From Christensenellales bacterium (GTDB taxonomy: Bacteria > Bacillota > Clostridia > Christensenellales > MGBC116941), in assembly GCA_050945795.1 (NCBI GenBank), contig JBMNTP010000002.1, positions 22,188 through 86,187 of the forward strand: DNA of 64,000 bases. Direction: 5' to 3'. How positions within the stretch are numbered: the first letter of the stretch is position 1; every line of letters begins with the position of its first letter. Shown here one piece after another: positions 21,964 to 43,134 of the stretch. The notes below the pieces were generated by a model. That model had not been told where the DNA came from, searched no databases, and worked only from the letters and a program-made list of their open reading frames with translations. The translations under genes and the position numbers were made by a program.

Positions 21964-23790
21964 TCATTCAACAGTAACGCTCTTTGCGAGGTTTCGCGGC
22001 TTGTCAATGTCGCATCCCCTCTCCAGCGCCATATAATACGCGAAAAGCTGCATGGGTATTATCGATAGTATAGGCGAAAAGCGGTTGGTGTGTGGTATCC
22101 GCCAAATATGGTCGGCCTCCTGCTCCATAACATCGTCGTTTTCGCTAACCAACGCCAGCACCTCCGCCCCCCGGACCTTTACCTCCTTAACGTTTGAAGC
22201 GATTTTATCGACTAGGTAGCCCTGCGTGGCTATTGCCACAACAAGCACCCCCTCCTCTATAAGGGCGATAGTCCCGTGCTTAAGCTCTCCCGCCGCGTAT
22301 GCCTCGGCATGCACATAAGATATTTCCTTAAGCTTTAGCGCCGCTTCAAGCGCTAAGCAGTAATCAAGCCCCCTGCCTATATAAAACATATGCCGCCGAT
22401 CAAAAACCCGGCTGGCAAAGTATTGTATAACGTCTTTTCTCTCAAGAAGCGCCTGCGTTTTTTCAGGCAGCGTCTTAAGCTCGCTTATAGCTGCAAAAAG
22501 CTCCTCGCTTTTTATATTTCCCCTTTTAGAAGCCATGTCATACGCCAATATATAAAGCATGAGCACCTGGGATATAAACGCCTTAGTAGAAGCTACGGCA
22601 ATCTCCGGCCCCGCAATGGTATAAAGCACATGGTCGGCTTCCCTCGCTATTGTCGAGCCTATCATATTGCATATCGCTATAACCTCGGCGCCCCTGCGCT
22701 TGGCTTCTCGCATGGCGGCGATGGTGTCGGCGGTTTCCCCCGACTGACTTATTATAATGAACAAATCGCCTTTGTCTATTATAGGATCTCTGTATCTATA
22801 TTCGCTGGCGATGTCGACCTCAACGGGTATACGCGCCAGCTTTTCTATAATCGCCTTGCCCACCATACCGGCGTGGTATGCCGTACCGCACGCTACTATC
22901 TTTATAGAGCTAAGCCGCTTTGCCCGCTCAGCGTCTATAGGCATAAATTCATCGCGCATGGCCATAGCTTCGGTATCGACGTATTTTTCGAGTGTATTTC
23001 TAAGTACCGACGGCTGCTCGTGTATTTCCTTTATCATGAAATGCTCAAAGCCGCCTTTTTCTGCCGCCTCTATATCCCAGCTTATACGCTGCGCCGGCCT
23101 TTGAGCTCTCTGTCCGAATTCATCGTAAAATTCCGCGGTGCCGCGTCCTATGACAGCGACGTCGCGGTCGTCTAAAAAATATATATTTCGAGTGTATTCA
23201 AGAAGCGCCGTTACATCGGAACCTATAAACCCTTCATTCTCTGTAAGTCCTACTACAAGAGGACTGTCTTTTCTTACGCAATAAAGTTTCTCCGGCGCGT
23301 CGTTGCATATTATGGCCAATGCGTAAGAGCCTTTAAGCACCGCCACCGTTTTATATATCGCCGCCACCATATCGCCATTGTAGTAATAATCGAGCAGGTG
23401 CGCTATTACTTCAGTGTCCGTTTCCGATGCGAATTTATAGCCTTTTGCGCTTAGCATCTGCTTAAGCTTGAAATAGTTTTCTATTATGCCGTTATGCACT
23501 ACGGCTATGCCGTGTCCCGCATTTGACTGCGGATGCGCGTTTATGTCGGAAGGCTCGCCGTGTGTAGCCCATCTGGTATGCCCTATGCCTGTTGTTCCTG
23601 AAAGAGGGGTTTTAAGTAGCCTGTCTTGGAGTTTTGTCAACCTGCCCTTAGCTTTGGCTATGTTTATTGTGCCGCCGTCGTATATGGCTACTCCCGCCGA
23701 GTCATATCCCCTGTATTCAAGCCGTTCTAGTCCGCCGAGCAATATCGGCTGGCATTGTTTATCTCCAGTATATCCGACTATACCGCACAT
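21964..23790 (-). CDS. glmS: glutamine--fructose-6-phosphate aminotransferase
   Basis: MCGIVG start, LEYRGYDSAG, GHTRWATHG, HNGIIEN, SQSGETADT, PRNLAKSVTVE. Confidence 0.98.
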   Translation of the reverse strand: MCGIVGYTGDKQCQPILLGGLERLEYRGYDSAGVAIYDGGTINIAKAKGRLTKLQDRLLKTPLSGTTGIGHTRWATHGEPSDINAHPQSNAGHGIAVVHNGIIENYFKLKQMLSAKGYKFASETDTEVIAHLLDYYYNGDMVAAIYKTVAVLKGSYALAIICNDAPEKLYCVRKDSPLVVGLTENEGFIGSDVTALLEYTRNIYFLDDRDVAVIGRGTAEFYDEFGQRAQRPAQRISWDIEAAEKGGFEHFMIKEIHEQPSVLRNTLEKYVDTEAMAMRDEFMPIDAERAKRLSSIKIVACGTAYHAGMVGKAIIEKLARIPVEVDIASEYRYRDPIIDKGDLFIIISQSGETADTIAAMREAKRRGAEVIAICNMIGSTIAREADHVLYTIAGPEIAVASTKAFISQVLMLYILAYDMASKRGNIKSEELFAAISELKTLPEKTQALLERKDVIQYFASRVFDRRHMFYIGRGLDYCLALEAALKLKEISYVHAEAYAAGELKHGTIALIEEGVLVVAIATQGYLVDKIASNVKEVKVRGAEVLALVSENDDVMEQEADHIWRIPHTNRFSPILSIIPMQLFAYYMALERGCDIDKPRNLAKSVTVE

Positions 23791-23827
23791 TAATTCCACT
23801 CCTATCCGCGCGTCTAAACCATACAAT

Positions 23828-23926
23828 AAAAAAACAGAATAAACGTCCTGAAGGGTATTCAGTTATCCCACTCCAGAACGCCGTTATCCTTGGCTGATTA
23901 TAGCATAAAACCATATCCTCGCACAA
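23828..23926 (-). promoter_or_regulatory. glmS-operon promoter followed by a terminator-like leader hairpin
   Basis: TTGTGC-18-TATAAT with TG extension (23897-23926), then a long imperfect hairpin (23837-23889) and a T7 run before the glmS RBS. Confidence 0.5.
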
Positions 23927-24018
23927 CATAATTCTTTATGTCGCGCGCGCAGTATCAGCCGTCAATTAATTATATTTTTATGCCGCGCACTATATACCGG
24001 CGCTAAAGGATAAGCGAA

Positions 24019-25530
24019 CTATCTCATAAAATCCTGGCTCGCCGCGTTTTTCTTTACCTCCGCGTCGGTTTCTAAAATATCCAAAAAAGCATCTACTACG
24101 CGCTTATCAAACTGTGTGTTCGAGCCCTGCACCAACTGCTTTTTAGCCTCCTCAAGTGTAAGATGGGTACGGTAATGCCTGTCCGACGTCATGGCGTCAA
24201 AAGCGTCTGCTACGGCGAGTATCCTTGCCGAAATCCCAATCTCTTCGCCCTTAAGCCCGTCAGAATAACCCTTCCCGTCGTATCTCTCATGATGATGCAG
24301 CACAATAGGCACAACATCTTGGAACATCGATACGGCGGAGAGTATCATAGCGCCTTTGCTCGGATGCTTCTTTATTTCATCATATTCTTCTTTTGTCAGC
24401 GCCCTGCGCTTTAAAAGTATGTCGTCGGCTGTTCCTATTTTGCCTATATCATGGAATATGCCGGCAAGGTGCAGCCTTTCAAGCTCATCCTCGCTTAGCC
24501 CCATCCGCTTGCCTATAACCTGCGAATAATACGATACCCTGTCGCTGTGACCTCGAGTATATTCGTCCTTTGCGTCAACGGTAAGCCTTAAGACTTCTAT
24601 AGTATCCATATACCTGCGCTTAAGTTGGGCGTAGGTGTGTATAAGCTCTTCGTTTTTGGTGTTAACCAGAGAATGTAAAGATGCGTTGTTTATAGATGAC
24701 GCAGCCTGACTGGCGTATATCTGCAGCAGCTTTATGCCTTCAAGCGATTGCTTGCCGCCTACAAACAGCACGCCTATCGAGTTTCTCGTATCGTTTGACA
24801 GCGGTATAGCAACGCCGTTATCCTTTTCTATAACCTCGTTTCCGGCGCGCGCCCGGCCAATAAGCTCTAAAAGGTTTGGCCCGAGTATCTCTGAGAATCT
24901 TTCAAGCGGCGCCATAAACTTGCCTATGCCCCTAAATATACTCTGCTGCCCGCCGCCCTTTTCATCGAGCTCATCTATAAGTATAAACGCATCCTTACTG
25001 TTTACCAGCGGCAGTATCTGCTCTAATATCTCCTCAAGTATATTGCCTATGGGCTGAAGCTGATATATCTTTGGCACCGCGCCAAGAATACTGTTTAGCC
25101 CCTCTTGGAATTTTTTTATAAGCCGCATTTGCGATATAGACTTTATGCCCGACTCAATAAGCAATTGAAGCTGATCCAGCCTGTCGCTTTTTTCGCAGTA
25201 AGCTTGTATATCGAGGGATTTTATTGTTTCTATAGGCGGCGCTAAATCCTTATGGCCGGTGAGCAGCAGTATATACAGCTCTTTATCGAACTTGCGTATG
25301 CTTTCAACAACCATATCTCCCCTAAGCGGGTGCATATAATAATCGAGCACGAGTATATCGTATTTTTCGCGCCTAAGCTCCTCAATGCCGTCCATAGGGT
25401 TGGTAAATCCTATAGACCAGTATCCATTTCGCTCAAGCAATGCGCCAACGATATCAACTATGCCCTCTTCGTCGTCTACCAGCATAATTTTATATTCCCT
25501 AGACAAATCCTTGGTCTTAGTTTTTCTCAT
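24019..25530 (-). CDS. response regulator with REC, GAF-like and HD-GYP domains (candidate c-di-GMP phosphodiesterase)
   Basis: REC motifs (LVDDEE, LDYYM, LLTG, CEK); YTRGHSDRV, FHDIGK, HHHERYDGKGYS, ADAFDAMTSDRHYR. Confidence 0.9.
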   Translation of the reverse strand: MRKTKTKDLSREYKIMLVDDEEGIVDIVGALLERNGYWSIGFTNPMDGIEELRREKYDILVLDYYMHPLRGDMVVESIRKFDKELYILLLTGHKDLAPPIETIKSLDIQAYCEKSDRLDQLQLLIESGIKSISQMRLIKKFQEGLNSILGAVPKIYQLQPIGNILEEILEQILPLVNSKDAFILIDELDEKGGGQQSIFRGIGKFMAPLERFSEILGPNLLELIGRARAGNEVIEKDNGVAIPLSNDTRNSIGVLFVGGKQSLEGIKLLQIYASQAASSINNASLHSLVNTKNEELIHTYAQLKRRYMDTIEVLRLTVDAKDEYTRGHSDRVSYYSQVIGKRMGLSEDELERLHLAGIFHDIGKIGTADDILLKRRALTKEEYDEIKKHPSKGAMILSAVSMFQDVVPIVLHHHERYDGKGYSDGLKGEEIGISARILAVADAFDAMTSDRHYRTHLTLEEAKKQLVQGSNTQFDKRVVDAFLDILETDAEVKKNAASQDFMR

Positions 25531-25548
25531 AACATCAACCCTCTTAAG

Positions 25549-27375
25549 CTATAAAAGCGGAATAGATATATAAAATGTCGTGCCGTCCCCCGATCTTGTC
25601 TCAAACCACATCTTGCCCCTGAATCCGCCTTTAACGGTACTATGCGACATATACAGCCCCAAACCTGTCCCGTACTTGCCTTTCGTTGTCACCATAGCGT
25701 TGAGCAGCTTGGTCCTTATGCTTTTGTCTATGCCGCCCGCCTTATCCTTAATGGCGAAAATCAGATTATCGTTTTCCTTGGTTAAATCAAGCTTTATAAC
25801 GCCCGGCTTACCGCCATAAGCCTGTATGGCATTGACAATAATATTATCGAACACCTGAACCAGGCTGTTTATATCGCCCTTAAGCTTTGTTTTCAAATCT
25901 ACTTCAGTATTTATTGTCATGGAACAGGCGGATTTTGTCAACTCATGTCTCATTAAAATATTGACGCGTTTAAAAAGTTCTTCAATTGTGAAATACGATT
26001 CCTCGCTGCCTATAAACTTTGTAGCCTGATCTTTAACCGTTGATATTATATCCGCCATATACCCCATATGTGTTTTGACCTTGGCAGTCCATTGCATTAT
26101 CTCACCGGCTATTTCCCTATGATCGTCATCTGTAACAGAACTGTCGCCTATCGAATCGCGGTATTCCTCGGTCAAATGCCTTATCTGGTCAATAGAGCCG
26201 GCAACCGACATTATAGGTGTTCTAAGGTTATGCGCTATGCCGCCTATAAGCTGCCCCAGCATAGCCAACCGCTCTCTTTCAAGCAGCGCCACCTGGTTTT
26301 CCTGTATTGTCTTTGTATCCATTACATGCTGCGTTATATCTTTAAAAAGCAGTATAACCGCCGCTGTATGATTGTTTTTATAAGCTATGGGCGTCAATTC
26401 AATTATATAATACAGCTTTTCATCCTGCCATTCGAGGCTGAAATCCAGCATCGCCGCCTCTCCGCTTTGAAATACCTTTTGGGCAAACTCCTTTATCTTC
26501 TGCACGCTATAATCGGCTCCGATTTTAGTATCAGCAAAATCTGAAAGATTTTTTACCGCTCTTGGCTGCAATCCCGACCTGAGTATGAAATTATCCTCAA
26601 ACGCCTTGTTGTGATCTATAACTCTGTAATCGGAATCTATAACTACAAAGCTATCAGATATTCTGTTTACCACCGTTTGCGTGGCGATAGGCGTTATTTT
26701 AAGCAAATTATACCTGAATATGCCAAGTGCGAACAGCGCTAATGTAAGCGCAAAAGCCGCCGGCGTGGTATGAACGGTAAAGCCGGGTACACGAATCGTG
26801 TAGAGCACATTCGTCGCCAGCGGTATAATGCTGCCTACGCTTATTGTTATAGCCTGCAGCGAAAGTATGCCGGAGTTTTTTATGGCAAAAAACACAAGAT
26901 AGCCCAGCCCCGCCAGCATACAAACATACATATATGCGGCATGGAAATAAAAATACGGACCGGTTACATTCAAAGAGGTATCAAGAGCGCTGTATGACTG
27001 ATAGAAAAGATGATGATAGTCGTTTGTCCATACCATTATTATGGAAATAATCGGTACTATCAATATATATTTATACAGCCTGTAAATCGCCCTTTCGGGA
27101 TACGCAAATACCAACCCCAGTACCAGCAGCGACACCGGCGCCAGCGCCGAACCAAGATACGTCATGTTTTCCCAGAACATAATCATATCCGCATCGCCTA
27201 TATTTGCGGCCAAACTTTCAAATATAACCGCTACCGACCATATTATAAGCTCTATAACAATAGTAAGAAAAACATTATGCAGTATCGACCGCTTTTTTAT
27301 AGATAATATGTATACCAAAAGCCCTATAAGGAACAGCGTTGTTATGCATAGCACATAAAGCCATAGTTCATTCAT
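25549..27375 (-). CDS. sensor histidine kinase with N-terminal 7TM domain and PAS-like domain
   Basis: About 7 hydrophobic helices (including WTNDYHHLFY), PAS-like segment ending FKDIT, H-box AHNLRTP, N-box NAIQA, DKAGGI, TTKGKYGTGLGLY. Confidence 0.92.
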   Translation of the reverse strand: MNELWLYVLCITTLFLIGLLVYILSIKKRSILHNVFLTIVIELIIWSVAVIFESLAANIGDADMIMFWENMTYLGSALAPVSLLVLGLVFAYPERAIYRLYKYILIVPIISIIMVWTNDYHHLFYQSYSALDTSLNVTGPYFYFHAAYMYVCMLAGLGYLVFFAIKNSGILSLQAITISVGSIIPLATNVLYTIRVPGFTVHTTPAAFALTLALFALGIFRYNLLKITPIATQTVVNRISDSFVVIDSDYRVIDHNKAFEDNFILRSGLQPRAVKNLSDFADTKIGADYSVQKIKEFAQKVFQSGEAAMLDFSLEWQDEKLYYIIELTPIAYKNNHTAAVILLFKDITQHVMDTKTIQENQVALLERERLAMLGQLIGGIAHNLRTPIMSVAGSIDQIRHLTEEYRDSIGDSSVTDDDHREIAGEIMQWTAKVKTHMGYMADIISTVKDQATKFIGSEESYFTIEELFKRVNILMRHELTKSACSMTINTEVDLKTKLKGDINSLVQVFDNIIVNAIQAYGGKPGVIKLDLTKENDNLIFAIKDKAGGIDKSIRTKLLNAMVTTKGKYGTGLGLYMSHSTVKGGFRGKMWFETRSGDGTTFYISIPLL

Positions 27376-30300
27376 ATGCTGACCTCCTTATCATAAGCAA
27401 AGATATCCGATACATAGCCTTCTATATACTTCTCATCAATTACCGGCCATTTAAAAACTATGCCCTTAAGACACTCCGATGTAATATCGCTTGAAAGGGC
27501 AATCCTCTGCTCACCTTGCGATACGTCTACAAGCAGTCCGGCAAGGCTGTCGTATTTTCCCGAGCGGCTCATACTCAATACTATTTCGGTAAATTCGGCA
27601 TCCGGCTTAACCTCGATTGCGCGATCCATGCGGCTCAGCGTTTTCGCCAGCCATCCGGCGGTTACAACATTGGGATTGTCTAAATGATATACCCGCTCCT
27701 TCATGCCCTTCGCCGCCGCTAGCGCCAGCACCGCCTCTGCCGATGCGTCTACAGGTGCCAGCTCAAGCTGCTGTCCCTCCATGCTTTGAGGTATAGCGCC
27801 TATGCTTATAAGCGCCTTTATGCGCTGCGCGAAAGCGTTTTTCTCCGGCTCTCTTTGGAATTTTCCGTCCCCCGTCCTGCCGGTAAGGTTGCCTATTCTG
27901 TATATGCGGGCGTCCAGCCCCTTTTCAATCGCCTCAAGCACAATGCCTTCGGCTATAAACTTTGTCCTAACATATTCGTTGTCGGTATAATTCTGGCCTA
28001 TAAAATAATCCCTCTCGCTAAGCTCTCCGTGCTTTTGAGCGTCGCCTTCAAAATGCGTGCCGGTAACGCTTATTGTCGATAGGTGCAGAAGTACGGCTCC
28101 GGCTTGTTTTGCCAGCCTAACCGCCTGCCTTGTACCCTCAACATTAACCCTGTCAAAGTCCTCCGGTCTTCCGATATGGCTTGTTATGGCCGCGCAATGC
28201 ACCACCGTATCTACAACCGCCGCTTTTTCATAATCTCTTCGTGAAAGCCCAATGCGATGTCGTGATACATCTCCTTTTAAAACCTCGGTACCCGCGAGTA
28301 TGCCCTCCGCCTCCATAGCAAAATAATATCTTACGGTATCAAAAAGCCTCTTTCGCGCCGCGTCATTATCCTCCGCTCTGACAATACAATAAACCTTTGA
28401 GCCGTATTCCTTCCTAAGCTGCCTTAGTATATAAGCACCGGCATATCCCGTCGCCCCCGTTAGAAGCACAGTTTCAAGCCGCACCGGCATAAGCGGCTCA
28501 TCAGACGGCACAACGCTTACCCTAAGCGCCGGCGTACCTTTCGCCCCGCCCGCCGCTTTGGCTTCTTCTTTCATGTCAATGCGCGAGCATATTTTTCTTA
28601 GCGTGCCTAGGGAATAGAAGTCCTGCGTGCGTATGCTCCAGCCAAACTGTATAATTGCCGCCTGAACTTTTATAACCGCTAAAGAATCGCCGCCGAGCGA
28701 AAAGAAGTTATCATCCGGTCGTATTCCCGAAACGCCGAGCACACGGCTCCATATCCTTGCCATCTTCTTCTCCGCCGCGCTCATACCCGATGCCTTTACC
28801 GCCGCCTCCGGCTGAGCTTTTTTATCCGGCTCGGGCAGCGCCTTTCTGTCCACCTTGCCGTTTAATGTAAGTGGCATTGCCTCAAGCTGTAGAAGATACT
28901 GCGGCACCATATAATTAGGCAGCCTTTCGCCCAGCTTTTTTCGCAGCTCGTCCTTGTCAACGGCTTGCTTTGAGGCAAAATATCCGCACAGATATTTATT
29001 CATGCCGGAGCCAAAATCCTTCACAACCGCCTCGTCTATGCCGGGAAATTCACGCATCGCCGCTTCAATTTCGCCCAGCTCTATGCGTAACCCTCTTATT
29101 TTTATCTGGTTATCCGCCCGCCCCATTATCTCCATTTCGCCGTTTTCCATAAACGCGCATATATCCCCCGATTTATACATAACTCCGCCGGGGAAAAACG
29201 GGGCGGGCAAAAAGCTTTTTTTATTAAGCTCGTTACGGCCTATATATCCCGTCCCAACGCAATGCCCGCCAATATAAGCCTCGCCCGGAACGCCTATGGG
29301 AGTAGGGTTCATATCGGCATCGAGTATATACATGCGGGTGTTTATAATAGGCTTTCCTATTGTGATATGGCGGGTGGCGCTTAAATCCTTGAATGTGCAG
29401 TACACAGTTGTTTCGCTCGGGCCATAGCCGCTTATAATGCGCGCCGAAGTATGCTTTTTAAGCAGCGCCAGCAGCGATGAAGGAAACTCCTCACCGCCCA
29501 ATACAATCTTTTTAATATTGCCGCCCGCCGCCTTTCTAAACGCCTTGTCCTCCATCATAAGCCGCATGCGTGTCGGCGTTGTCTGTATAAACGCCACGCC
29601 CTCGCGCTCTATAAGACCGGCAAGCAGCACCGGCTGCCTTAACTCTTCCTCTGTGCATATTACAACTGTGCAGCCAAATAGCATAGGCATTATAGCGTCT
29701 ATTACAAATATATCGAAGGATACAGTAGTAACAGACACGCTTATCTCGTCCGGATCGAACGCTATCGTCGACTTCGTAGCCTCATAAAGGTTATACAGCG
29801 CTATCCTCGGCAGCACAACTCCTTTTGGCGTGCCGGTAGAGCCGGATGTGTATATTATATACGCGGCATCCTGCGGCTCGTTTATATGCTCAGGATTTTC
29901 GACCCGTCCCGCCGTGCTTATGTCCTTTGTATATATAACTGCGCCATCAAATTCAAAGTCTATATCGCAATCGGTTATTATATGCGTCGCGCCGCTGTCT
30001 TTTAGCATAAACGCCACCCTGTCATCAGGATATGCCGGGTCAAGCGGCAGATACCCGCCGCCGGCCTTTAATATGCCCATAAGCGCCGCCATCATATCAA
30101 AAGAGCGGCTTATATGCAGCGCCACAACTGTATTTCTTGAAACGCCGTCCTCTTTAAGGCGCAGCGCTATTTGATTAGCTCTATCGTTAAGCTGCCCAAA
30201 AGTAATGCTCTTATCGTCCACCACCAGCGCTTTTTTGTCGGGTATACGCCTTGCTAACTCTTCAAGCGCGCCCTGTATACTGCCATCGGGCAGCGGCGCG

Positions 30301-33300
30301 TCCGTCATGTTAAAGCCGCGCGTCACCATATGCAGCTCCTCGCCGCTCATAACGCCTACGTCTTTTATAAGCGCGCCGGGATTTTCGCAAAGGTGCTTTA
30401 TAAGCTCCTTCATATGCGAAGCCATACGCCGCGCGGTAGAACGCTTGAAAAGCGACGAGTTGTATTCAAATAGGCATTCCATGCCGTCCCCGTCGTAAAC
30501 CTCAAGAGTAATATCAAGCTTGGCTACGCCGGGGTCAAACGGCAGCAGCCGCCCTTTCTGCCCCGATAGCACAACCGGCCTTTGCGTTCCGGTTTGGAAT
30601 ACCAGCATGGTATCATAAAGTGGGTTTCTGTTGACCTCTCTTTGTATGTTAAGATCGCCTACCAGCATATCAAGCGGATAATCGGCGTTATCATACGCCA
30701 CGACGCAATTATCCTTAACCTCCTCAAGGAAGTCGGAAAAGCTTTTGTTCGCCTCCGGCCTGTTCCTTAAAGGCAACGTGTTTAGGAATATGCCCGCCAC
30801 ATCCTTAAGCTCATACCTGTTTCTGCCGGATACCGGCGCGCCAATAATAATGTCATGCTGTCCGGTGTACTTTTTAAGGAAGATATTATAAGCCGCCAGC
30901 ATAAACATAAACGGCGTAGCTCCGGCTGCCGCTGCTATGCTTTTAAGCTGCCTTGACAGCTCCGGCTCAATTGTAAAGTTGCATCTCGCTCCGGTATATT
31001 TCATGCGCGCGCCGCGCGGCTTGTCCGTTTTAAGGTTTAGCAGCGGCAATTCTCCGCTAAGTTCCGACATCCAAAAGCCCTTTTGCTTAGCAATTTCCTT
31101 GGACGCCATGCGTTTGTTTTCATAAACGGCGTAATCCTTATATTCTATTTCAAAAGCCGCCCCTGGCCTGCCGCCCAGCGTCCGCTCCAGCTCCTCAAGT
31201 ATAATTTCGGATGTGCGCATGTCCCCGATTATATGGTGCATATCAACAAACAGCACATCTCCGGTAGCTCCGCGTATTATACCCGCGCGTATAAGCGGCG
31301 CACTGCCCAGATCAAACGGCTGCACCAGGCTTTTAAGCAAGCTTTTTATGCGCCGCCCGTCCTGCTCAATTATATCGAGCTTAAACGCCGCCCTCGCCAT
31401 AACCCGCTGCCTAAGCTCGCCGCGCCTTATCTCAAACACCGTTCTAAACGCTTCTCTAGACTCTATAAGCTTTTTAAACGCCTTTTCAAGCTCACCTTTA
31501 GGCAATCGAGATTTAAACTCAAAAGCCATAGGCATGTTATAAGCAAGCGATGACGCATCGCTCATAGCCATTACATACATGCGTTTTTGCGCCGACGATA
31601 CCGGGTAGTCGCGCATTTTAGGCGCCGGCTCGATAGGCGCATAACTGCCGCGCACAGCGGCATCTATAAGCGAAGCGGCGTTTTTTAGCGAAGCGTCAAG
31701 GTATAATTCTTCAAGCGACACTTCCGCGCCGTATTTCTTTCTCACCTGCGATAGCATTGTAATAACCGAAAGCGAGTTGCCGCCTATATCAAAGAACGAA
31801 TCATCCCGCCCTATATTTTTAGCGCCCAGCACCTCGCTCCAAATCTGCGCCAACTCTTTTTCCGTTGTAGTTTTCGGCGCCACAATCTCAGCTGCCGCAT
31901 CGCCAATTTTATGCATAGGATCGGGCAGCCGCCTTTTATCCACCTTGCCGCTGTTGTTCAGCGGCAGTTCATCAAGGAAAACCACATGCGATGGCACCAT
32001 ATAAGAAGGCAGCTCTTTTGAAAGCTCCCGCTTTATATCCGCCGCCGTCAGCTCCGTCTCCCCCACTATATATGCGCCAAGATATTTTTGTCCGCTATTA
32101 TCTATCCTATCGGCAACAGCGCAGGCGAAAACTCCGCTTATCCGCTGAAGCTTTTCCTCTATCTCGCCCAGCTCCACCCGATACCCGCGTATCTTTACCT
32201 GCTGATCCATCCTGCCTAGAAACTCTATCTCGCCCCTTGGATACCACCTCGCCATATCGCCGGTGCGATACAGCATCTCCCCTTTAGCAAACGGATTTTG
32301 CACAAATCTCTCGGCGGTAAGCTCGGGATTGTTTATATACCCCCTCGCAAGACCAAGGCCACCTATATAAAGCTCTCCGTAAACGCCTATAGGCACCGGA
32401 TTCATATGGCTATCGAGTATATAAGCTTTAACGTTTTTAAGCGGCCGCCCTATATTTACCTCTGACGCTTCCGTAACGTCTTTGCAGGTCGCGGCAATCG
32501 TTATCTCTGTCGGCCCGTAATAATTATATATACGCGCGTTTGTCCTGGCCTGTATGCGCTTTAATAGCGATAACAGCAGCACATCTCCGCCGCTTATAAT
32601 ATCCGTCATATCCCTAAGACAGGTATCAGAACCGGGGTCTGAAAGCAGCATCTCCATTCTGCCCGGTGTAAGCACCATTATGGTAACGCCTTCTTTTGAT
32701 ATAAGGCTAACCATGTTCTTAGGTATATTCACCTCATGCTCCATCGCCATAACAACGGTGCCGCCTAGCGCCAGAGGGCAATATATCTCCATAATGCTTA
32801 TATCAAACGATATTGAGGAAGCGCAAAGCATACGCGCGCCGGGTCCATAGCTGTGCAGCGCCGCGGTGGCGAATATGTAGTGCGTGAGCGTGTTATGCTC
32901 TATCATAACCCCCTTTGGCCGTCCTGTTGACCCGGAAGTATATATTATATAAGCAATATCGCCCGGTTCCGGCATACGCGCTTTAAAATCGACGACAGGC
33001 AATATATCCGCCGCCGAAATTATAGGCACATCACTAAGCGCCGCCGCCCGCTCCGCAAGACCATCTGAAACGATAACCGCCTTCGCCCCGCTGTCGCTGA
33101 GCATATACGCTATCCTTTCATCCGGCAAATCGGGATCGAGCGGCACAAACGCCGCCCCCGCTTTTACCGCCCCCATCTCGCCGGTAATAACATCGGCGTT
33201 TCTATAAGTCATAACGCCAACAGCGTCGTCCCTGCCTATTCCTAACTTTAGCAGCTTCGCGGCAGCTCCGGCCGCCAGCTCGTCCGCCTCCTTATAGCTA

Positions 33301-34781
33301 AGCGTTTTACCCGCGCATACAAAAGCTGCGGCGTCCGGCTGCTTCTCCACCCATTCGTTCCACAAATCGGCTATTGTGCTTTGTTTTGGGAACTCCATGC
33401 CGGTGTCGTTGAAGGTCGAGAGTATGCGTTGCCGCTCCTCGCTAGTAAGTATGTTTATAGAGTGCAGCGGCTGCGATGCATGCTTAAATACCGCCTCGAA
33501 TATGGCGAGAAGATGCATGTGTATGTATTCTATTTCCTTTAGCGAATACATGGGTATAAGATGATCGTAATCTATTAAAAGCTTACCGGAATCGTCCCTA
33601 TCGTGTATGTGTATGTTAAGCGAAGTGGCCTGATAGCCGGTAAAATGCCAACGCCCCTCATATGAAAAAAGGTCTGATTTTCTTTCAAATTTGGCGTTTT
33701 GATATGATAGCGTGATGTCGTAAAGCGAGTCGAGCTCTTTATTCGTCTTTCTAAGCTCTTGTAAAAGCATATCGTATGGATATTTTTGATGCTTTAAAAC
33801 GGAAAACCATTCGTTAGCCGCTTTTTGAGCAAAGCCGCTGAACGTCAGCTCGTCATCAATGTTTATCCTTACCGGCACAGTGCTTACAAACATTCCGAAA
33901 GCCTGCCTCATGCTGCGACTGGTGCGGTTGTAAACCGGTGTGCTTATAATAAGGTCTTTTTTGTTTGTTATCCTGCTTATGTAAATGCTTAGTGCCGACA
34001 AAAAGAACGCAAATACCGACACGTCGAATCTAGCGCAGTAATCACGCACTTTTTGCGATAGCTCGCTGCTAAGCACATATGTTTTTCTTCTCGCCCTTGT
34101 TCCCTGCTTGCGTGGCTTTTGCTTAAGTACCGTCGGCTCCGGCAAACTGCCAAACCTCGATAGCCAAAAGCTCCTGTCCCTTTCAAACCGCTTCGAGCAA
34201 AGGTATTCCTGCTCGGCGTTTACAAAATCTATATAGCTGCCGCTAAAAACGCTGTCCGGCTCCTCATCTTTTAGCAAAAGCCCGTATGTTTCAAGCACTT
34301 TGCTTGAAAAAGTAACCATAGAAAGCGCATCTGATATAATATGGTGTATTTTTGCGTACATGCCGCCTTCTTGCTCACCTAGCCGAAAAACGGCGAAATA
34401 GCAGAGGTTTGAATCGATTAATGTAAGCGGCGTCTGGCTTTGGAGCGTATCCCATGCGTAAAGCGCCTGCTCGCCTTCGGCGCTAAAATCCAGCGTATCG
34501 ATATTTCCAGGCATTTCATCTGAAACATACTGATATGCGACGCCGTCTTCCTCGCCCACTCTAAGGCGTATCGAGTCGTTGTCCCTTACATACATGCGTA
34601 TAGCTTTTTTGAGCAACTCAAGGTCTATGCGGCCTTTTATTTTGAGCGTACCCGCATTGCTCCACATCGCGGTTCCCGGAAACCTTTTTTCGCTGTACCA
34701 TACCCTCTGCTGAGGATGCGTCAAAGGATACTTAATCTTGTCCTTTTTCAATGCCCTTCCCCCATCTTCTGTATAAATCAA
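27372..34781 (-). CDS. bimodular non-ribosomal peptide synthetase, C-A-T-C-A-T-R (terminal reductase)
   Basis: C1 HHIISDA; A1 YTSGSTGRPKG, YGPTE, YRTGD, NNSGKVDK; T1 FFDIGGNSL; C2 HHIIGDM; A2 YTSGSTGTPKG, YGPSE, TLNGKVDR; T2 FFSLGGDSL; R TGATGYAG and YVRTK. The true start may be TTG 34751. Confidence 0.96.
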   Translation of the reverse strand: MIYTEDGGRALKKDKIKYPLTHPQQRVWYSEKRFPGTAMWSNAGTLKIKGRIDLELLKKAIRMYVRDNDSIRLRVGEEDGVAYQYVSDEMPGNIDTLDFSAEGEQALYAWDTLQSQTPLTLIDSNLCYFAVFRLGEQEGGMYAKIHHIISDALSMVTFSSKVLETYGLLLKDEEPDSVFSGSYIDFVNAEQEYLCSKRFERDRSFWLSRFGSLPEPTVLKQKPRKQGTRARRKTYVLSSELSQKVRDYCARFDVSVFAFFLSALSIYISRITNKKDLIISTPVYNRTSRSMRQAFGMFVSTVPVRINIDDELTFSGFAQKAANEWFSVLKHQKYPYDMLLQELRKTNKELDSLYDITLSYQNAKFERKSDLFSYEGRWHFTGYQATSLNIHIHDRDDSGKLLIDYDHLIPMYSLKEIEYIHMHLLAIFEAVFKHASQPLHSINILTSEERQRILSTFNDTGMEFPKQSTIADLWNEWVEKQPDAAAFVCAGKTLSYKEADELAAGAAAKLLKLGIGRDDAVGVMTYRNADVITGEMGAVKAGAAFVPLDPDLPDERIAYMLSDSGAKAVIVSDGLAERAAALSDVPIISAADILPVVDFKARMPEPGDIAYIIYTSGSTGRPKGVMIEHNTLTHYIFATAALHSYGPGARMLCASSISFDISIMEIYCPLALGGTVVMAMEHEVNIPKNMVSLISKEGVTIMVLTPGRMEMLLSDPGSDTCLRDMTDIISGGDVLLLSLLKRIQARTNARIYNYYGPTEITIAATCKDVTEASEVNIGRPLKNVKAYILDSHMNPVPIGVYGELYIGGLGLARGYINNPELTAERFVQNPFAKGEMLYRTGDMARWYPRGEIEFLGRMDQQVKIRGYRVELGEIEEKLQRISGVFACAVADRIDNSGQKYLGAYIVGETELTAADIKRELSKELPSYMVPSHVVFLDELPLNNSGKVDKRRLPDPMHKIGDAAAEIVAPKTTTEKELAQIWSEVLGAKNIGRDDSFFDIGGNSLSVITMLSQVRKKYGAEVSLEELYLDASLKNAASLIDAAVRGSYAPIEPAPKMRDYPVSSAQKRMYVMAMSDASSLAYNMPMAFEFKSRLPKGELEKAFKKLIESREAFRTVFEIRRGELRQRVMARAAFKLDIIEQDGRRIKSLLKSLVQPFDLGSAPLIRAGIIRGATGDVLFVDMHHIIGDMRTSEIILEELERTLGGRPGAAFEIEYKDYAVYENKRMASKEIAKQKGFWMSELSGELPLLNLKTDKPRGARMKYTGARCNFTIEPELSRQLKSIAAAAGATPFMFMLAAYNIFLKKYTGQHDIIIGAPVSGRNRYELKDVAGIFLNTLPLRNRPEANKSFSDFLEEVKDNCVVAYDNADYPLDMLVGDLNIQREVNRNPLYDTMLVFQTGTQRPVVLSGQKGRLLPFDPGVAKLDITLEVYDGDGMECLFEYNSSLFKRSTARRMASHMKELIKHLCENPGALIKDVGVMSGEELHMVTRGFNMTDAPLPDGSIQGALEELARRIPDKKALVVDDKSITFGQLNDRANQIALRLKEDGVSRNTVVALHISRSFDMMAALMGILKAGGGYLPLDPAYPDDRVAFMLKDSGATHIITDCDIDFEFDGAVIYTKDISTAGRVENPEHINEPQDAAYIIYTSGSTGTPKGVVLPRIALYNLYEATKSTIAFDPDEISVSVTTVSFDIFVIDAIMPMLFGCTVVICTEEELRQPVLLAGLIEREGVAFIQTTPTRMRLMMEDKAFRKAAGGNIKKIVLGGEEFPSSLLALLKKHTSARIISGYGPSETTVYCTFKDLSATRHITIGKPIINTRMYILDADMNPTPIGVPGEAYIGGHCVGTGYIGRNELNKKSFLPAPFFPGGVMYKSGDICAFMENGEMEIMGRADNQIKIRGLRIELGEIEAAMREFPGIDEAVVKDFGSGMNKYLCGYFASKQAVDKDELRKKLGERLPNYMVPQYLLQLEAMPLTLNGKVDRKALPEPDKKAQPEAAVKASGMSAAEKKMARIWSRVLGVSGIRPDDNFFSLGGDSLAVIKVQAAIIQFGWSIRTQDFYSLGTLRKICSRIDMKEEAKAAGGAKGTPALRVSVVPSDEPLMPVRLETVLLTGATGYAGAYILRQLRKEYGSKVYCIVRAEDNDAARKRLFDTVRYYFAMEAEGILAGTEVLKGDVSRHRIGLSRRDYEKAAVVDTVVHCAAITSHIGRPEDFDRVNVEGTRQAVRLAKQAGAVLLHLSTISVTGTHFEGDAQKHGELSERDYFIGQNYTDNEYVRTKFIAEGIVLEAIEKGLDARIYRIGNLTGRTGDGKFQREPEKNAFAQRIKALISIGAIPQSMEGQQLELAPVDASAEAVLALAAAKGMKERVYHLDNPNVVTAGWLAKTLSRMDRAIEVKPDAEFTEIVLSMSRSGKYDSLAGLLVDVSQGEQRIALSSDITSECLKGIVFKWPVIDEKYIEGYVSDIFAYDKEVSI

Positions 34782-35440
34782 ACTGAATTAGTATTGAGAA
34801 GTTCAGAAAACAAAACCTTTCTTAGTTCCGGTTCTTCCTCCGTCTTATAACAAACTGCCGCGGCATACCCCGGCAAATCGAAGGTGGCAAACCGCGCCCC
34901 CTCAATATTCGATGCCTTGTATCCGCCCTTAGTATTAAGCTCAAAACTCAGCTTCGTCAAAGGATATGAAATGCCGGTGCCTATAAACTTTACATAGCTT
35001 TCCTTAAGCGCCCAGATGGCGCAAAAATGCCGCTTATCGTAACCCGATGCCTTATACGCCCCAAACTCGGCTTTAGACATAATCCTCTTCGCGACCTCCG
35101 GCCTTACCTCATGCACTCTCTCTATATCCGCCCCCACCTCCGCCTTATCAACGGCGCAAACGGCAGCGCCGCCGCTATGGCTAAGGTTAAAGAATATGCC
35201 GCCGCTTATATACGGCTTGCCCCGCTCGGAAAAAATGAAATCCTCAGGGCCTACACTTATGCCGGCATAGTCATTAAGCGCGAATTTAACCAGCCTGTCC
35301 GACACCAGCAGCGAAATAATATGCTCTTCCTTTTTAAACCGCTGCGCCCTTTGCCTTTTCGTCTCATAAAGTTCGCCAAGCCAACGCTCTTTTATAGCAG
35401 GCGGAATTTCAGCCGGCATATCAATATAATAAACCCTCAT
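34778..35440 (-). CDS. Sfp-type 4'-phosphopantetheinyl transferase
   Basis: RGKPY, FNLSHSG, VGADIE, WALKESYVK..G.G; overlaps the NRPS start. Confidence 0.93.
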   Translation of the reverse strand: MRVYYIDMPAEIPPAIKERWLGELYETKRQRAQRFKKEEHIISLLVSDRLVKFALNDYAGISVGPEDFIFSERGKPYISGGIFFNLSHSGGAAVCAVDKAEVGADIERVHEVRPEVAKRIMSKAEFGAYKASGYDKRHFCAIWALKESYVKFIGTGISYPLTKLSFELNTKGGYKASNIEGARFATFDLPGYAAAVCYKTEEEPELRKVLFSELLNTNSV

Positions 35441-35787
35441 GCTGCTTCCCCCGCGCTCGCCATTTTTTTACGCATACAAACGCCGGTATATCCACGCGCG
35501 CTATCCGCCAATTTTATACTTGCCCTGTTTAAATAAGAAAGCGCACTAAAATAGCTGTCCTTGCCTATAATAAACGCTATGTTCTTTTCGTCCATGATAA
35601 TATCGATAAGAAAATCGTAAGCGGCGCGCGAAACCCTTTTCATAAATCCGGAAAAATGCACATTATACCCGGCCTTAACCGGTGATTTAATGTAATCGCT
35701 TTTACCGGCAGACACCACCGCTCCGCCTATCACCGTATGCTTTAAATCGCTACTTCTCACAATTTTATATAGTGAATAATTACGCAA
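35437..35787 (-). CDS. hypothetical protein (116 aa) coupled to the PPTase
   Basis: Stop overlaps the PPTase ATG (ATGA); TTG start overlaps the upstream ORF stop; no recognised domain. Confidence 0.5.
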   Translation of the reverse strand: MRNYSLYKIVRSSDLKHTVIGGAVVSAGKSDYIKSPVKAGYNVHFSGFMKRVSRAAYDFLIDIIMDEKNIAFIIGKDSYFSALSYLNRASIKLADSARGYTGVCMRKKMASAGEAA

Positions 35788-35962
35788 TGTTCATACTTCC
35801 CATCACGAAATTTCTAAAATTAACTACATTTAACATAATACCATCTTTTTCGCGCCCTATCAATGAAAACAGCGTATCCGCCGCCGCAAAATCATACCCG
35901 CCAGCACCTAAAACCATCGCCATTATATGCACAAGGAATCTATATTTATTTATGGCCGTCAT
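35780..35962 (-). CDS. small hypothetical protein (60 aa), first ORF of the NRPS operon
   Basis: GGAGG upstream of ATG 35962 (MTAINKYRFL...); stop overlaps the next start. Confidence 0.4.
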   Translation of the reverse strand: MTAINKYRFLVHIMAMVLGAGGYDFAAADTLFSLIGREKDGIMLNVVNFRNFVMGSMNIA

Positions 35963-36035
35963 ATTCCCGCTAAACCTCCGAATATGGTGAATTTGGCAGG
36001 CAATCAACATACTATCGTTTATCATCTGCATATTA

Positions 36036-36057
36036 TTAAGTGCTTTTTAAGTACTTT
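36036..36057. promoter_or_regulatory. tandem 11-bp direct repeat in the divergent NRPS/ABC promoter region
   Basis: TTAAGTGCTTT TTAAGTACTTT (10/11 identical); an extended -10 TGATATAAT for the ABC genes lies at about 36090-36098. Confidence 0.5.
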
Positions 36058-36130
36058 CTATGGCAAAATCCTTCTCGGACTGTTTCCGTATGATATAATT
36101 ATCTCATATTTTTTAGGGAGAATTGATAAT

Positions 36131-36835
36131 ATGCTTACAGTTGAGAATGTGACTAAAAAATACGGCAAAACACTAGCAAACGACAGCCTGAGTTTTAGCG
36201 TTAAGTCGGGTCAGGCGGCTATACTCCTTGGCCCTAACGGAGCCGGCAAATCAACAATTATAAAATGCATAGCCGGCCTGCTGCGGTTTTCCGGCCTTAT
36301 AAGCATTGAAGGACATCAAAATACATCTATAGACGCCAAGCGTGTTTTAGGGTATGTGCCGGAGATGCCCGCCGTATATGACCTTCTAACAGTATCAGAG
36401 CATATAGAGTTTATAAACAGAGCATATCGCGTTAGCGATTACAAGTACGGCGAAGAGCTGCTTGAGCGCTTTGAAATGGCCGACAAAAAATCTAAACTTG
36501 GCAAAGAGCTGTCAAAAGGCATGCAGCAAAAGCTTTCGATATGCTGCGCTCTTTCGCATAAGCCGTCGGTTATAGTGCTCGATGAGCCGCTTGTCGGCCT
36601 CGACCCTCACGCTATAAAAGAGCTTAAGCTTATTATAACCGAGCTTAAACAGCAGGGCGCCGCGCTGCTTATAAGCACGCATATGCTCGATAGCGTTGAG
36701 GACTACTGGGACGTCGCCCATATAATGATGCATGGCAAAATAGCCGCCACCAGCATAAACCCCGGCGGCGAAGCCGGAGCCAAATCGCTTGAGGAGCTGT
36801 TTTTTAGCATAACAGAAAGCGGAGGTGGCAAATAA
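36131..36835 (+). CDS. ABC transporter ATP-binding protein (exporter type)
   Basis: GPNGAGKST, LSKGMQQK, LDEPLVGLD, ISTH. ATG 36131 follows GGGAG. Confidence 0.93.
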   Translation: MLTVENVTKKYGKTLANDSLSFSVKSGQAAILLGPNGAGKSTIIKCIAGLLRFSGLISIEGHQNTSIDAKRVLGYVPEMPAVYDLLTVSEHIEFINRAYRVSDYKYGEELLERFEMADKKSKLGKELSKGMQQKLSICCALSHKPSVIVLDEPLVGLDPHAIKELKLIITELKQQGAALLISTHMLDSVEDYWDVAHIMMHGKIAATSINPGGEAGAKSLEELFFSITESGGGK

Positions 36836-38412
36836 TGAGCGCCGCCTTAACTTACGTTCTTGCCGCGCGGCTTAAAAACAACATAAAAGGCTTGCTAAAA
36901 AGCCCCGGTAAACTGACTTACGCCTTAATACTCATTGCCGTTCTGGTATTGTCGGCGACTACTCAGAATATGGACGGCGCAGCGCATGGCGATTACCGCG
37001 ATATACGCGAACTTTACGCCATCGCCCTTGCCCTCTATACTATTATGTTCGTGCTTATATCGCATAACGGCTTTCAGCGCGGAGCCAGCATGTTCTCGCT
37101 GCCCGATGTAAACCTAGTGTTCACATCGCCTATAAGTCCGGCAAAGGTTTTGTTTTACGGCCTTTTCCAGCAGCTTGGCTCATCGATTATAATTGGTTTT
37201 TTTATATTCTTCCAATACGGCTGGATAAGCTCGATATACGGTGCCGGCTTTGAAGTGTTGCTCGCTATATTCGCCGCTTACGCTGTAACCGTTTTCCTCG
37301 CCCAGCTTACCGCCATGGCGATATATTCTTTTACAAACTCCAACTTCAAAAGGCTAAGAGTGATAAAAACGATCTTTTACGGCATAGTCATAGCATACGC
37401 CGCCGCGGCACTGCTGTTTTTAGCCGGCGATTATTCAAACCTGCTCCCCCGCGCCTTAGAAGCGGCTACAAGTCTGCCGGCGATGCTTTTCCCGGTATCA
37501 GGCTGGGCGGCGTCAGGTGTTTACGGCCTTTTAACCGGCAGTACTTTAACCTCGCTTTTGGGCCTCGCGCTTTGCGTGGCTTATACTGCGGCCATAGTAA
37601 TTCTTATTATAAAAACAAAGCAGGATTATTATGAAGACGTTCTTTCCGCCGCCGAAACATCGTTTTCGGCGCTTGAGGCAAAGAAAAGCGGTAATCTTAG
37701 CGAGGCGTCTATTCGTGGCGTGCGTACCGGCAAAATAGGCATAGGCAACGGCGAAGGCGCAGATGCTTTCTATTATAAGCACATTGTTGAGAACAGGCGA
37801 TCGCGAGTGTTCATACTAAGCGGCTCCTCGCTTATATTCGCCGTATGCATAATAATATATGCCTACTTCACTAAAAGCATGGGGCTTATACCTATAATCG
37901 CGTTTAGCACTTATATGCAGTTTTTCTCAGTCGCCATGGGAAGGCTGTCAAAAGAACTTATGAAGCCTTATATATACCTTGTCCCCGCCTCTCCTTATAA
38001 AAAGCTTGTAGCTTCCATAAAGGAAAGCTTTTCGGGCTTTGTAGTCGAAGCGGTGATTGTATTTTTGCCTATATCCTTCATACTTAATTTGCCGCCTCTT
38101 CTAACGCTATTGTGCATAGCTGTGCGGATATCCTTCGCTATGCTGTTTACAGCCGTTAATATACTGGTTCAGCGGGTATTTGGTTCATCGCCTATGAAAA
38201 CGCTGATATTCCTTTTCTACTTCCTTGCCTTTATATTGATGTGCGCACCGGGCGTTATAGCCGCTATATTGCTTATATCAAACGGCTTTGTAATAGTATC
38301 TGAAGATGTGACGATGCTCATCTCTCTTATAGCTTTAAACATACCTGTTTCACTTCTGGTTTTCTACCTTTGCAGAAATATGCTTAAGTATTCGGAGCTT
38401 AATTCGAGATAA
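36835..38412 (+). CDS. putative ABC exporter permease
   Basis: 525 aa with two blocks of TM helices and a YYED motif; TAATG coupling to the ATPase. Confidence 0.85.
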   Translation: MSAALTYVLAARLKNNIKGLLKSPGKLTYALILIAVLVLSATTQNMDGAAHGDYRDIRELYAIALALYTIMFVLISHNGFQRGASMFSLPDVNLVFTSPISPAKVLFYGLFQQLGSSIIIGFFIFFQYGWISSIYGAGFEVLLAIFAAYAVTVFLAQLTAMAIYSFTNSNFKRLRVIKTIFYGIVIAYAAAALLFLAGDYSNLLPRALEAATSLPAMLFPVSGWAASGVYGLLTGSTLTSLLGLALCVAYTAAIVILIIKTKQDYYEDVLSAAETSFSALEAKKSGNLSEASIRGVRTGKIGIGNGEGADAFYYKHIVENRRSRVFILSGSSLIFAVCIIIYAYFTKSMGLIPIIAFSTYMQFFSVAMGRLSKELMKPYIYLVPASPYKKLVASIKESFSGFVVEAVIVFLPISFILNLPPLLTLLCIAVRISFAMLFTAVNILVQRVFGSSPMKTLIFLFYFLAFILMCAPGVIAAILLISNGFVIVSEDVTMLISLIALNIPVSLLVFYLCRNMLKYSELNSR

Positions 38413-42451: not shown

Positions 42452-42522
42452 AATGTTTGCCTCATAATTGTGTTATTATTGTAATTCGAATTCTACCAAC
42501 AGCTTTTTAAAAATACAATCCC

Positions 42523-42556
42523 CCTACCTTTTCTTTAGAAAAGGTAGGACCAAAAG
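42523..42556 (-). repeat. REP-like palindrome, copy 1
   Basis: CCTACCTTTTCT-TT-AGAAAAGGTAGG perfect stem, preceded on the minus strand by CTTTTGG. Confidence 0.7.
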
Positions 42557-42990: not shown

Positions 42991-42996
42991 CAGCTT

Positions 42997-43078
42997 AGAA
43001 ATGCGAAGCATTTCTGCAAAGTCTTTTGCTTCTTTTCTTCTAGAAAAGAAGCGGGAGTATGAGGGCTGCGCCCTCATA
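42997..43078 (+). repeat. cluster of three hairpins including REP-like palindrome copy 2
   Basis: AGAAATGC-GAA-GCATTTCT (42997-43015); GCTTCTTTTCT-TCT-AGAAAAGAAGC (43028-43052); TATGAGGGC-TGC-GCCCTCATA (43058-43078). Confidence 0.75.
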
Positions 43079-43086
43079 TCGTCCCC

Positions 43087-43134
43087 CGTCCTCTCGTCCT
43101 CTCGTCCTCTCGTCCTCTCGTCCTCTCGTCCTCT
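43087..43134. repeat. octanucleotide microsatellite (CGTCCTCT)x6
   Basis: Six perfect copies with degenerate flanking copies. Confidence 0.95.

Follow-up and report, generated by a model that had tools for sequence, protein, structure and literature searches.

A 64,000-nucleotide stretch of the Christensenellales bacterium assembly GCA_050945795.1 (contig JBMNTP010000002.1, positions 22,188 to 86,187), referred to here in its full length as the window, encodes on its minus strand an Sfp-type 4'-phosphopantetheinyl transferase (PPTase), a non-ribosomal peptide synthetase (NRPS), a HisKA_7TM-PAS histidine kinase, and a REC-DUF3369-HD-GYP response regulator, in that order. The open reading frame (ORF) listing and Pfam matches bear out this chain, which a first-pass annotation of the same DNA had proposed. 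The last three genes have intact catalytic motifs and form a triad that recurs in strict synteny across related genomes. Between closely related strains, the adenylation (A) domains of the synthetase and the seven-transmembrane (7TM) sensor of the kinase have been replaced together, an exchange of predicted specificity that resembles a pherotype cassette. Comparison of these loci gives strong support to a link between synthase, sensor, and effector. We propose, with a probability of roughly 0.6, that the triad is one functional unit in which the kinase serves as receptor for the product of its own synthetase; that the product mediates true cell–cell signaling is a more tentative proposal, for which we would offer somewhat less than even odds.

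Components and conservation of the triad

The NRPS contains two Condensation (C), two AMP-binding (A), and two PP-binding carrier (T) domains, followed by a terminal NAD_binding_4 reductase (R), all identified by Pfam. Its motifs are intact, with HHIISDA in C1, HHIIGDM in C2, and the carrier serines in GGNSL and GGDSL; in the reductase, GATGYAG at residue 2109 and YVRTK at residue 2270 provide the NAD(P) site and the YxxxK motif. The first C domain opens the protein with no carrier domain before it (Pfam), and the closest solved structures to C1 are 7c1k, 7c1h, and 7c1p (E 1.5e-33), Txo1/2, and the CDA synthetase 4jn3. The 7c1 entries and 4jn3 we take to be starter (lipoinitiation) C domains, a label that the search tool itself does not give. 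The pocket codes of the two A domains, extracted by alignment at what are presumably the Stachelhaus positions, read DIMVISYIA and DIIQILGVY. The nearest NCBIfam model to the NRPS is AusA (1418.9 bits, below the cut-off of 2500), with the best stretch at residues 1044–2457, and the nearest model to the PPTase is AusB, below its cut-off. Judged from these domains, the product is likely an N-acyl dipeptide aldehyde.

The kinase scores 145.2 bits for HisKA_7TM (PF16927), above the cut-off of 28.6. In its transmitter, H382, N511/N515, D544/G548, and G569–G573 are invariant, and the H-box (GGIAHNLRTPIMS), N-box, DxGxG, and GTGLGL motifs are kept. A structural model of the 7TM part (pLDDT 90.8, pTM 0.87) returned only weak matches to G-protein-coupled receptors (GPCRs) when compared with the PDB by Foldseek, none passing a threshold of E ≤ 0.001 and the best lying near it (E 1e-3). 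With VIA-align, the top 50 of 48,161 representative chains all have the GPCR fold, with Z-scores of 15.8–19.2, above the stated baseline for helical bundles (Z ~13–14), and superpose mostly at ~3 Å rmsd across ~200–229 of 235 residues. The model thus predicts a GPCR-like 7TM fold for the sensor, and the fold alone shows no function. The 7TM part is predicted to be embedded in the membrane with short loops; from helix order and positive loops (26–30, 92–97, 194–202, and after 222) we infer an N-out/C-in topology, which would place the conserved WTNxxHxLFY motif (116–125) at the outer end of TM4. The ligand of the HisKA_7TM domain is described as not known (PMC5847659).

The regulator has the REC-DUF3369-HD-GYP architecture of the RpfY type. 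An earlier description as REC-GAF-HD-GYP stands for the first and last domains; the middle one is DUF3369, which is GAF-like and not Pfam GAF. Residues D19, D20, D63, T91, and K114 of REC, and H328, H360-D361, H413-H414-E415, D418, G419, G421, and Y422 of HD-GYP, are invariant in 11 aligned sequences. The HD_5 match scores 134 bits (Pfam), and the top NCBIfam model is a NosR-family c-di-GMP (cyclic di-GMP) phosphodiesterase regulator (205 bits, below the cut-off of 400). The HD-GYP motif is defined as HHExx(D/N)GxGYP in bioRxiv 10.1101/2021.11.05.467447, and the window protein carries the metal ligands that identify an HD-GYP domain despite ending this motif in GYS. The same preprint gives RpfY as the name for REC-DUF3369-HD-GYP proteins, states that VCA0210 also cleaves cGAMP, and reports that the activity of characterized REC-HD-GYP proteins depends on phosphorylation of REC. 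The source genome (1.97 Mb, 98% complete) contains three GGDEF, no EAL, and two HD-GYP (HD_5) matches; the HD-GYPs are therefore the sole c-di-GMP phosphodiesterases found in it.

Kinase orthologues (E ≤ 1e-40) are present in 34 of 401 genomes surveyed in the order. In all 34, an NRPS match abuts the kinase on its 5' side, on the same contig and strand. Full-length regulator orthologues are confined to these genomes, where they lie directly 3' of the kinase, and the remaining regulator matches in this search cover the HD-GYP domain only, in proteins built differently. The kinase of a 35th genome (G039) is cut by a contig end. NRPS matches without the kinase were found in 12 genomes, and those that cover the greater part of the query reach no more than 31% identity; the NRPS superfamily is therefore wider than the linked clade. 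Among GTDB species representatives, kinase relatives lie in at least 584 stretches, and an NRPS precedes the kinase in 78 of the best 80 loci, which were those examined. In the two exceptions, L079 and L096, the sequence before the kinase is just 1180 and 278 nt long, respectively (L-numbers label related loci of the GTDB and metagenome sets). An HD-GYP regulator match is present in 68 of these 80 loci and a PPTase match next to the NRPS in nine. Metagenomes contain kinase relatives in at least 485 stretches, 80 loci of which were examined; where 1500 nt or more lie upstream, the NRPS is present in 66 of 68 loci, and where 1500 nt or more lie downstream, an HD-GYP regulator is present in 63 of 65. 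Across the three surveys, kinase–regulator pairs that lack the NRPS are all but absent, as the linkage suggested by the first-pass annotation had implied.

In the loci examined, the regulator beside the kinase is always REC-(DUF3369)-HD-GYP and never of a DNA-binding type. In gut "uncultured Clostridia", it is a 350-amino-acid REC-HD-GYP protein without DUF3369, at times a few genes away. The synthetase is more variable. Among 80 synthetase ORFs, 66 terminate in R, seven in a thioesterase (TE), and seven in neither, and some environmental lineages have one-module synthetases, either C-A-T-R (e.g., L034, L039, L083) or C-A-T-TE. The C-A-T-TE form precedes the same kinase family at L033:5923-9981 and in L036, L041, and L047. 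The predicted products of the TE-terminated relatives are therefore N-acyl amino acids, not aldehydes, and these relatives show that the pairing does not depend on the aldehyde. What stays constant is a synthetase for a lipo-amino acid or lipo-dipeptide, probably with a starter C domain, together with the kinase and the HD-GYP regulator; neither the aldehyde nor the exporter described below does. At L040:13267-20601 (minus strand), a 2444-amino-acid ORF lies convergent to the triad, right after the regulator, and its size suggests a second NRPS.

Joint replacement of A domains and sensor

The transmitter core is the conserved portion of the kinase across strain comparisons, whereas the 7TM sensor is hypervariable among strains with identical kinase cores, and in several strain pairs the variable cassette also takes in the PAS domain. 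The A-domain codes, which leave acyl chain and stereochemistry uncaptured, are very diverse and shuffled between modules. Over the whole set, code distance correlates with 7TM distance (Mantel r 0.43), and the correlation persists when the kinase core is controlled (partial r 0.33, a value reached in 1 of 2001 permutations). Among 161 kinases, 112 pairs have cores no more than 8% apart, and their 7TM distances are bimodal, either ≤0.06 or 0.18–0.57. Nine of 20 backbone groups contain two or three sensor types. The codes differ in all eight evaluable between-type comparisons (four others lack the NRPS sequence); within types, they are identical in 12 of 14 multi-member sensor types and differ at one or two positions in the other two, an agreement that is weak evidence because many members of a type are probably one strain. 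At kinase-core distances of 0.1–0.2, the mean 7TM distance is 0.19 for pairs with the same codes (n=7), 0.39 when one module differs (n=19), and 0.51 when both differ (n=13).

Sliding nucleotide identity between loci revealed the mosaics behind these numbers. L022 and L025 share a background of 89–97% identity, interrupted by exactly two islands in 21.6 kb, one in the A2 core (60–80%) and one in the 7TM region (68–71%), with T2-R between them 89–95% identical; a third congener used as a control identifies the L025 lineage as the odd one. In L056/L176 (background 97–100%), the islands are A1(+T1), at 55–62%, and the late transmembrane (TM)/PAS region, at 65–85%, parted by 4 kb of 97–100% identity. 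L152/L160 differ in A1 (58–69%) and from the R end into the TM region (64–71%), and are 97–100% identical between. L132/L153 have an A1 island, then T1-C2 at 93–98% (one window 90%), then a replaced segment from A2 through the TM region (55–68%), and a kinase core of 99%. Hence, four independent pairs combine an A-domain island with a sensor island across 1.5–4 kb of 89–100% identical DNA. A back-of-envelope estimate puts the chance of a second island falling in the ~1-kb sensor segment at ~1/10 per pair, or ~1e-4 for four pairs.

Other pairs show one continuous exchange. In L053/L059 (background 90–99%), a single block of 57–69% identity extends from C2 to kinase residue ~342, and the contiguous replaced blocks of L149/L160, L081/L183, and L169/L198 end at or before the PAS/DHp junction. 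The reverse mosaic occurs in L056/L062, where identity is 91–100% over the NRPS and the opening ~600 nt of the kinase gene, and 50–78% over the kinase core, regulator, and flanks. In the same pair, L056 ~7011-8200 is an A2 sub-island of 73–81% within an NRPS otherwise 93–100% identical, and the pocket code there is unchanged. Change-points in the kinase fall at amino acids 306–368 in 32 of 33 pairs.

The first-pass annotation had expected A domains and sensor to co-vary. The joint exchange in near-identical backgrounds, the deciding comparison, bears this out; the global Mantel tests, positive with the kinase core controlled and null with the R domain controlled (below), are mixed. Together with synteny, the coupled exchange supports a product–receptor relationship, and the earlier interpretation as a whole is partly supported.

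Circuit model, alternatives, and related systems

The proposed circuit would begin with a PPTase-activated NRPS whose first C domain is putatively of the lipoinitiation type and which would join two amino acids and release the product reductively. The co-variation suggests that this lipophilic product is recognized by the GPCR-fold 7TM sensor, together with the PAS domain, of the co-translated kinase. The kinase would then set the phosphorylation state of the regulator, and by analogy with characterized REC-HD-GYP proteins, REC phosphorylation is expected to switch on hydrolysis of the presumed substrate c-di-GMP by the HD-GYP domain. The output would therefore lie at the level of a second messenger and not directly in transcription. 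A-domain specificity and sensor vary jointly between strains, yielding pherotype-like variants of a signal that may act between cells or only on the producer. The logic would be of the Rpf/DSF type with specificity cassettes of the agr/ComQXPA type, with an NRPS and a 7TM kinase as its parts.

A broader reading is possible, and we hold it with less than even confidence: a widespread, so far undescribed form of Gram-positive signaling in which NRPS-made N-acyl (di)peptide aldehydes or acids serve as pheromones, GPCR-fold 7TM kinases provide strain-specific "pherotypes", and c-di-GMP is the direct output. If this is correct, dipeptide NRPSs with a terminal reductase in Clostridia of gut and digesters, usually discussed as sources of host-protease inhibitors, would be communication genes in the first place. 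The receptor model itself would offer a testable native function for a large family of small NRPS clusters in anaerobic Clostridia. It also proposes a ligand class for the orphan HisKA_7TM sensor domain and would carry the Rpf-type sequence of signal, kinase, and HD-GYP over to Gram-positive anaerobes that use a non-ribosomal signal. Natural allele pairs that share a kinase core but differ in sensor and A domain are ready specificity controls.

Several observations weigh against the receptor model. With the R domain or the whole NRPS controlled, the partial Mantel correlation is null (r -0.02 and -0.23, respectively), and over the global set a pocket-specific signal is therefore inseparable from divergence of the NRPS as a whole. 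At kinase distances of 0.3–0.4, there are 16 representative pairs whose codes are near-identical and whose 7TM distances nevertheless lie at 0.40–0.52, L056/L062 (0.12) being the exception; the codes therefore do not fix the sensor one-to-one. L023/L119 have an A2 island (71–82%, with the pocket differing at two of nine positions) and no 7TM island, and L062/L148 have a PAS island and no NRPS island. The contiguous replaced blocks are what linkage alone would also produce, and many loci come from metagenome assemblies, in which strain chimeras are possible. Twelve of the 80 GTDB loci lack an HD-GYP regulator within the DNA examined, and L133 and L192 are kinase–regulator pairs with no adjacent NRPS, which may be "listener-only" loci or NRPS losses. 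The ABC exporter, which the first-pass annotation had placed in the synthase–sensor–effector layout, is not conserved, its permease being absent from all 80 GTDB and all 80 metagenome loci. On the output side, the window regulator reads HHERYDGKGYS, with S for the P of GYP that 10 of the 11 aligned sequences retain. The source genome yielded no PilZ domain and, genome-wide, no c-di-GMP-I or -II riboswitch, the latter a weak blank, as the RF01051 control matched no control genome. Upstream of the two NRPS-less pairs (L133:1-4593 and L192:1-1833) lie unrelated genes, PPIase and POR in L133 and ODP/flavodoxin in L192.

Linkage without sensing could produce part of this pattern. The kinase would detect some other membrane or environmental cue, c-di-GMP would time the making or use of the product, and the sensor would hitch-hike in recombination tracts. 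The contiguous blocks that run from the NRPS into the 5' half of the kinase in L053/L059, L149/L160, and L169/L198 fit this account, as does the disappearance of the Mantel correlation once the adjacent R domain is controlled. Histidine kinase sensors generally outpace transmitter cores, so the clustered change-points may also be a mere rate effect. Hitch-hiking does not explain the four independent two-island pairs, however, with their 1.5–4 kb of 89–100% identity between, and it leaves unexplained why the kinase sits beside the NRPS in 34/34, 78/80, and 66/68 cases across many families. We consider this account unlikely. Direct docking, in which the 7TM or PAS domain binds the NRPS itself, tethering or gating synthesis, would recast the co-variation as a protein–protein interface. 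RpfC binds RpfF, and docking would suit both the translational coupling of NRPS and kinase and the replacement of entire A-domain cores, beyond the pocket residues, along with the sensor. Yet the partner may be A1 or A2, which is odd for a fixed interface and natural if both residues are in a ligand, and the modeled 7TM part is membrane-embedded with short loops; of all the explanations, this one we find very improbable.

Self-protection or feedback makes a different use of the same genes. The product would be mainly an antagonistic or protease-inhibiting metabolite, and the kinase would gauge the producer's own load, at the membrane or through PAS, and tune its physiology to it, with no role between cells. 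Lantibiotic producers have two-component systems that sense their own product. In the present loci, the product would be made in the cytoplasm, the cytoplasmic PAS domain co-varies in several cassettes, and no exporter is conserved; the products of related reductase-ended gut NRPSs are described as protease inhibitors (PMC12327764). Discrete pherotype-like types in identical backgrounds, however, are typical of recognition between cells, and a private loop would be less prone to diversify. The NRPS-less pairs L133 and L192 look like listeners, and the TE-ended relatives would yield N-acyl amino acids, which have no aldehyde warhead. A feedback role alone therefore seems to us improbable, and the kinase as receptor for the NRPS product remains the preferred reading.

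The first-pass annotation knew of no characterized example of such an arrangement and drew a parallel to agr. By analogy, the closest characterized circuit is instead Rpf/DSF of Xanthomonas (RpfF, RpfC, RpfG), a precedent for a signal synthase with a membrane kinase and a REC-HD-GYP output: it too clusters the synthase of a diffusible, lipid-like signal, a membrane kinase, and a REC-HD-GYP protein, and its output is c-di-GMP turnover or protein interaction, not DNA binding (PMC8895600; bioRxiv 10.1101/2021.11.05.467447). The former lists RpfC-RpfG as a quorum-sensing two-component system, and the latter describes RpfG. The Rpf/DSF synthase is of the crotonase type (RpfF, an enoyl-CoA hydratase), whereas here it is a two-module NRPS with a reductase, and no crotonase-family gene occurs among the scanned neighbors of the locus. 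RpfC is a hybrid with REC and HPt, in contrast to the non-hybrid HisKA_7TM-PAS kinase; the regulator here adds DUF3369, the hosts are Gram-positive anaerobes, and the specificity cassettes vary at the level of strains. The locus would thus work like Rpf without being a member, because its synthase is not RpfF-type and its kinase is not a hybrid. Resemblance to the RpfY family (VCA0210, DVU0722) lies in domain order and the full set of metal ligands, the placement beside VCA0210 following the family description in bioRxiv 10.1101/2021.11.05.467447; the window protein differs by its GYS, and the partner kinase and gene neighborhood are different.

The agr parallel holds for a polymorphic producer and sensor on a conserved core, whereas Rpf/DSF is closer as a circuit. 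In agr, producer and sensor are polymorphic, and the kinase part and regulator are conserved; in agr and ComQXPA alike, the signal-producing genes adjoin a polytopic sensor kinase. ComQXPA likewise combines a polymorphic producer and N-terminal sensor with a conserved kinase core and regulator (for ComP, PMC4008528), as found here. Unlike in these systems, the predicted signal is non-ribosomal with no precursor peptide gene seen, the regulator is an HD-GYP enzyme and not LytTR or NarL, and the sensor belongs to the HisKA_7TM family, its modeled fold being GPCR-like. The synthetase itself recalls AusAB and the ruminopeptin synthetase RupA, which share the two-module architecture ending in a reductase and the Sfp-type PPTase; it scores below the AusA/AusB equivalog cut-offs and has an extra N-terminal C domain, probably a starter. 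The products of AusAB and of gut-Clostridia NRPSs are dipeptide aldehydes, and these synthetases are known as sources of pyrazinones and protease inhibitors (PMC12327764, on Schneider & Balskus 2018 and Guo et al. 2017). In the literature searched, we found no description of an NRPS, 7TM kinase, and HD-GYP triad, and HisKA_7TM appears there merely as a named domain; Guo et al. 2017, Schneider & Balskus 2018, and the supplements lay outside the search, and a prior mention is possible.

Layout of the locus and its surroundings

The coordinates of the locus are collected in Table 1. The overlap of the NRPS stop with the kinase start, the 18-nt spacing from kinase to regulator, which contains GAGGG, and the divergent ABC exporter are all present in the sequence as first annotated. 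The NRPS may start at TTG 34781 or TTG 34751; the latter, preceded by GGGGGAAGGG, is more likely. Further 4-nt stop/start overlaps occur between orf116 and the PPTase (ATGA, 35437-35440) and, if TTG 34781 is the start, between the PPTase and the NRPS (34778-34781). These overlaps suggest a tightly packed operon, though orf116 is without relatives.

Table 1 Positions of the locus features in the window and of c-di-GMP-related matches in the source genome
Feature	Coordinates	Strand	Basis
Sfp-type PPTase	34778..35440	-	PF01648 (ACPS), Pfam
NRPS C-A-T-C-A-T-R, 2469 aa from TTG 34781	27372..34781	-	Pfam
NRPS stop/kinase start overlap, ATGA	27372..27375	-	sequence; AAGGAGG 7 nt upstream
Histidine kinase, 608 aa: HisKA_7TM, PAS, HisKA, HATPase_c	25549..27375	-	Pfam
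7TM sensor domain of kinase, aa 1-232	26680..27375	-	PF16927
Cytoplasmic PAS domain of kinase, aa 233-360	26296..26679	-	PAS_9, PAS_4 below Pfam cut-offs; PAS-like strands in model
Kinase transmitter core, aa 361-608: DHp (H382) and CA domain	25552..26295	-	conserved motifs
Response regulator, 503 aa: Response_reg, DUF3369, HD_5/HD	24019..25530	-	Pfam
orf116, unsupported small ORF; stop overlaps PPTase start	35437..35787	-	ORF call only
orf83, small ORF	35780..36031	-	ORF call only
Promoter-like site TTGATA, 17 nt, TG-TATTAT (extended -10)	35835..35863	-	consensus scan; pattern match only
ABC exporter ATPase (ABC_tran), divergent	35927..36835	+	Pfam
ABC_export permease, divergent	36835..38412	+	Pfam
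c-di-GMP set, source genome (G000) contigs	C1:190107-190562, C17:19395-19865, C9:907-1362, C1:290013-290483		

The two small ORFs, previously counted as members of the chain, have no Pfam or NCBIfam match and no tblastn match in any of the 80 GTDB and 80 metagenome related loci. In the protein Atlas, orf116 has a pLDDT of 0.33 and no informative neighbor; the promoter-like site sits inside orf83, an ORF that probably does not represent a gene. In the ORF of the ABC ATPase, the domain match starts near residue 68 (NCBIfam), and the true start is therefore probably downstream. Exporter and small ORFs are outside the conserved unit. In agreement with the first-pass annotation, the Pfam scan of neighboring genes found no DNA-binding regulator, and no ribosomal precursor peptide with a processing enzyme was recognized among the window ORFs.

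Housekeeping genes flank the locus at both ends: glmS, gatA, and gatB at one end, a DAO-Rieske oxidoreductase, DUF554, and an ABC transporter at the opposite end. The DNA runs that contain it are bioreactor and digester metagenomes, and no RNA run containing it was found; the contigs of four such runs held no variant cassette, only the same strain at low depth. At the Rfam gathering threshold, the whole window has one tRNA only, and an E-value scan of 35700-36250 found no credible riboswitch at the 5' end of the operon. Between the regulator stop and glmS lies a 190-nt leader (23827-24018). Ribozymes of the glmS class are common in Firmicutes; an E-value scan of 23700-24100 gave neither this ribozyme nor another credible Rfam match. 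Around 44 kb, where the GC skew switches sign, no dnaA-like gene was seen. The switch (from ~-0.23 to +0.06) falls at window positions 42000-44400, where gene orientation flips from minus to plus, and the first genes past the flip encode DUF1015, an aspartokinase-like protein, and Mem_trans.

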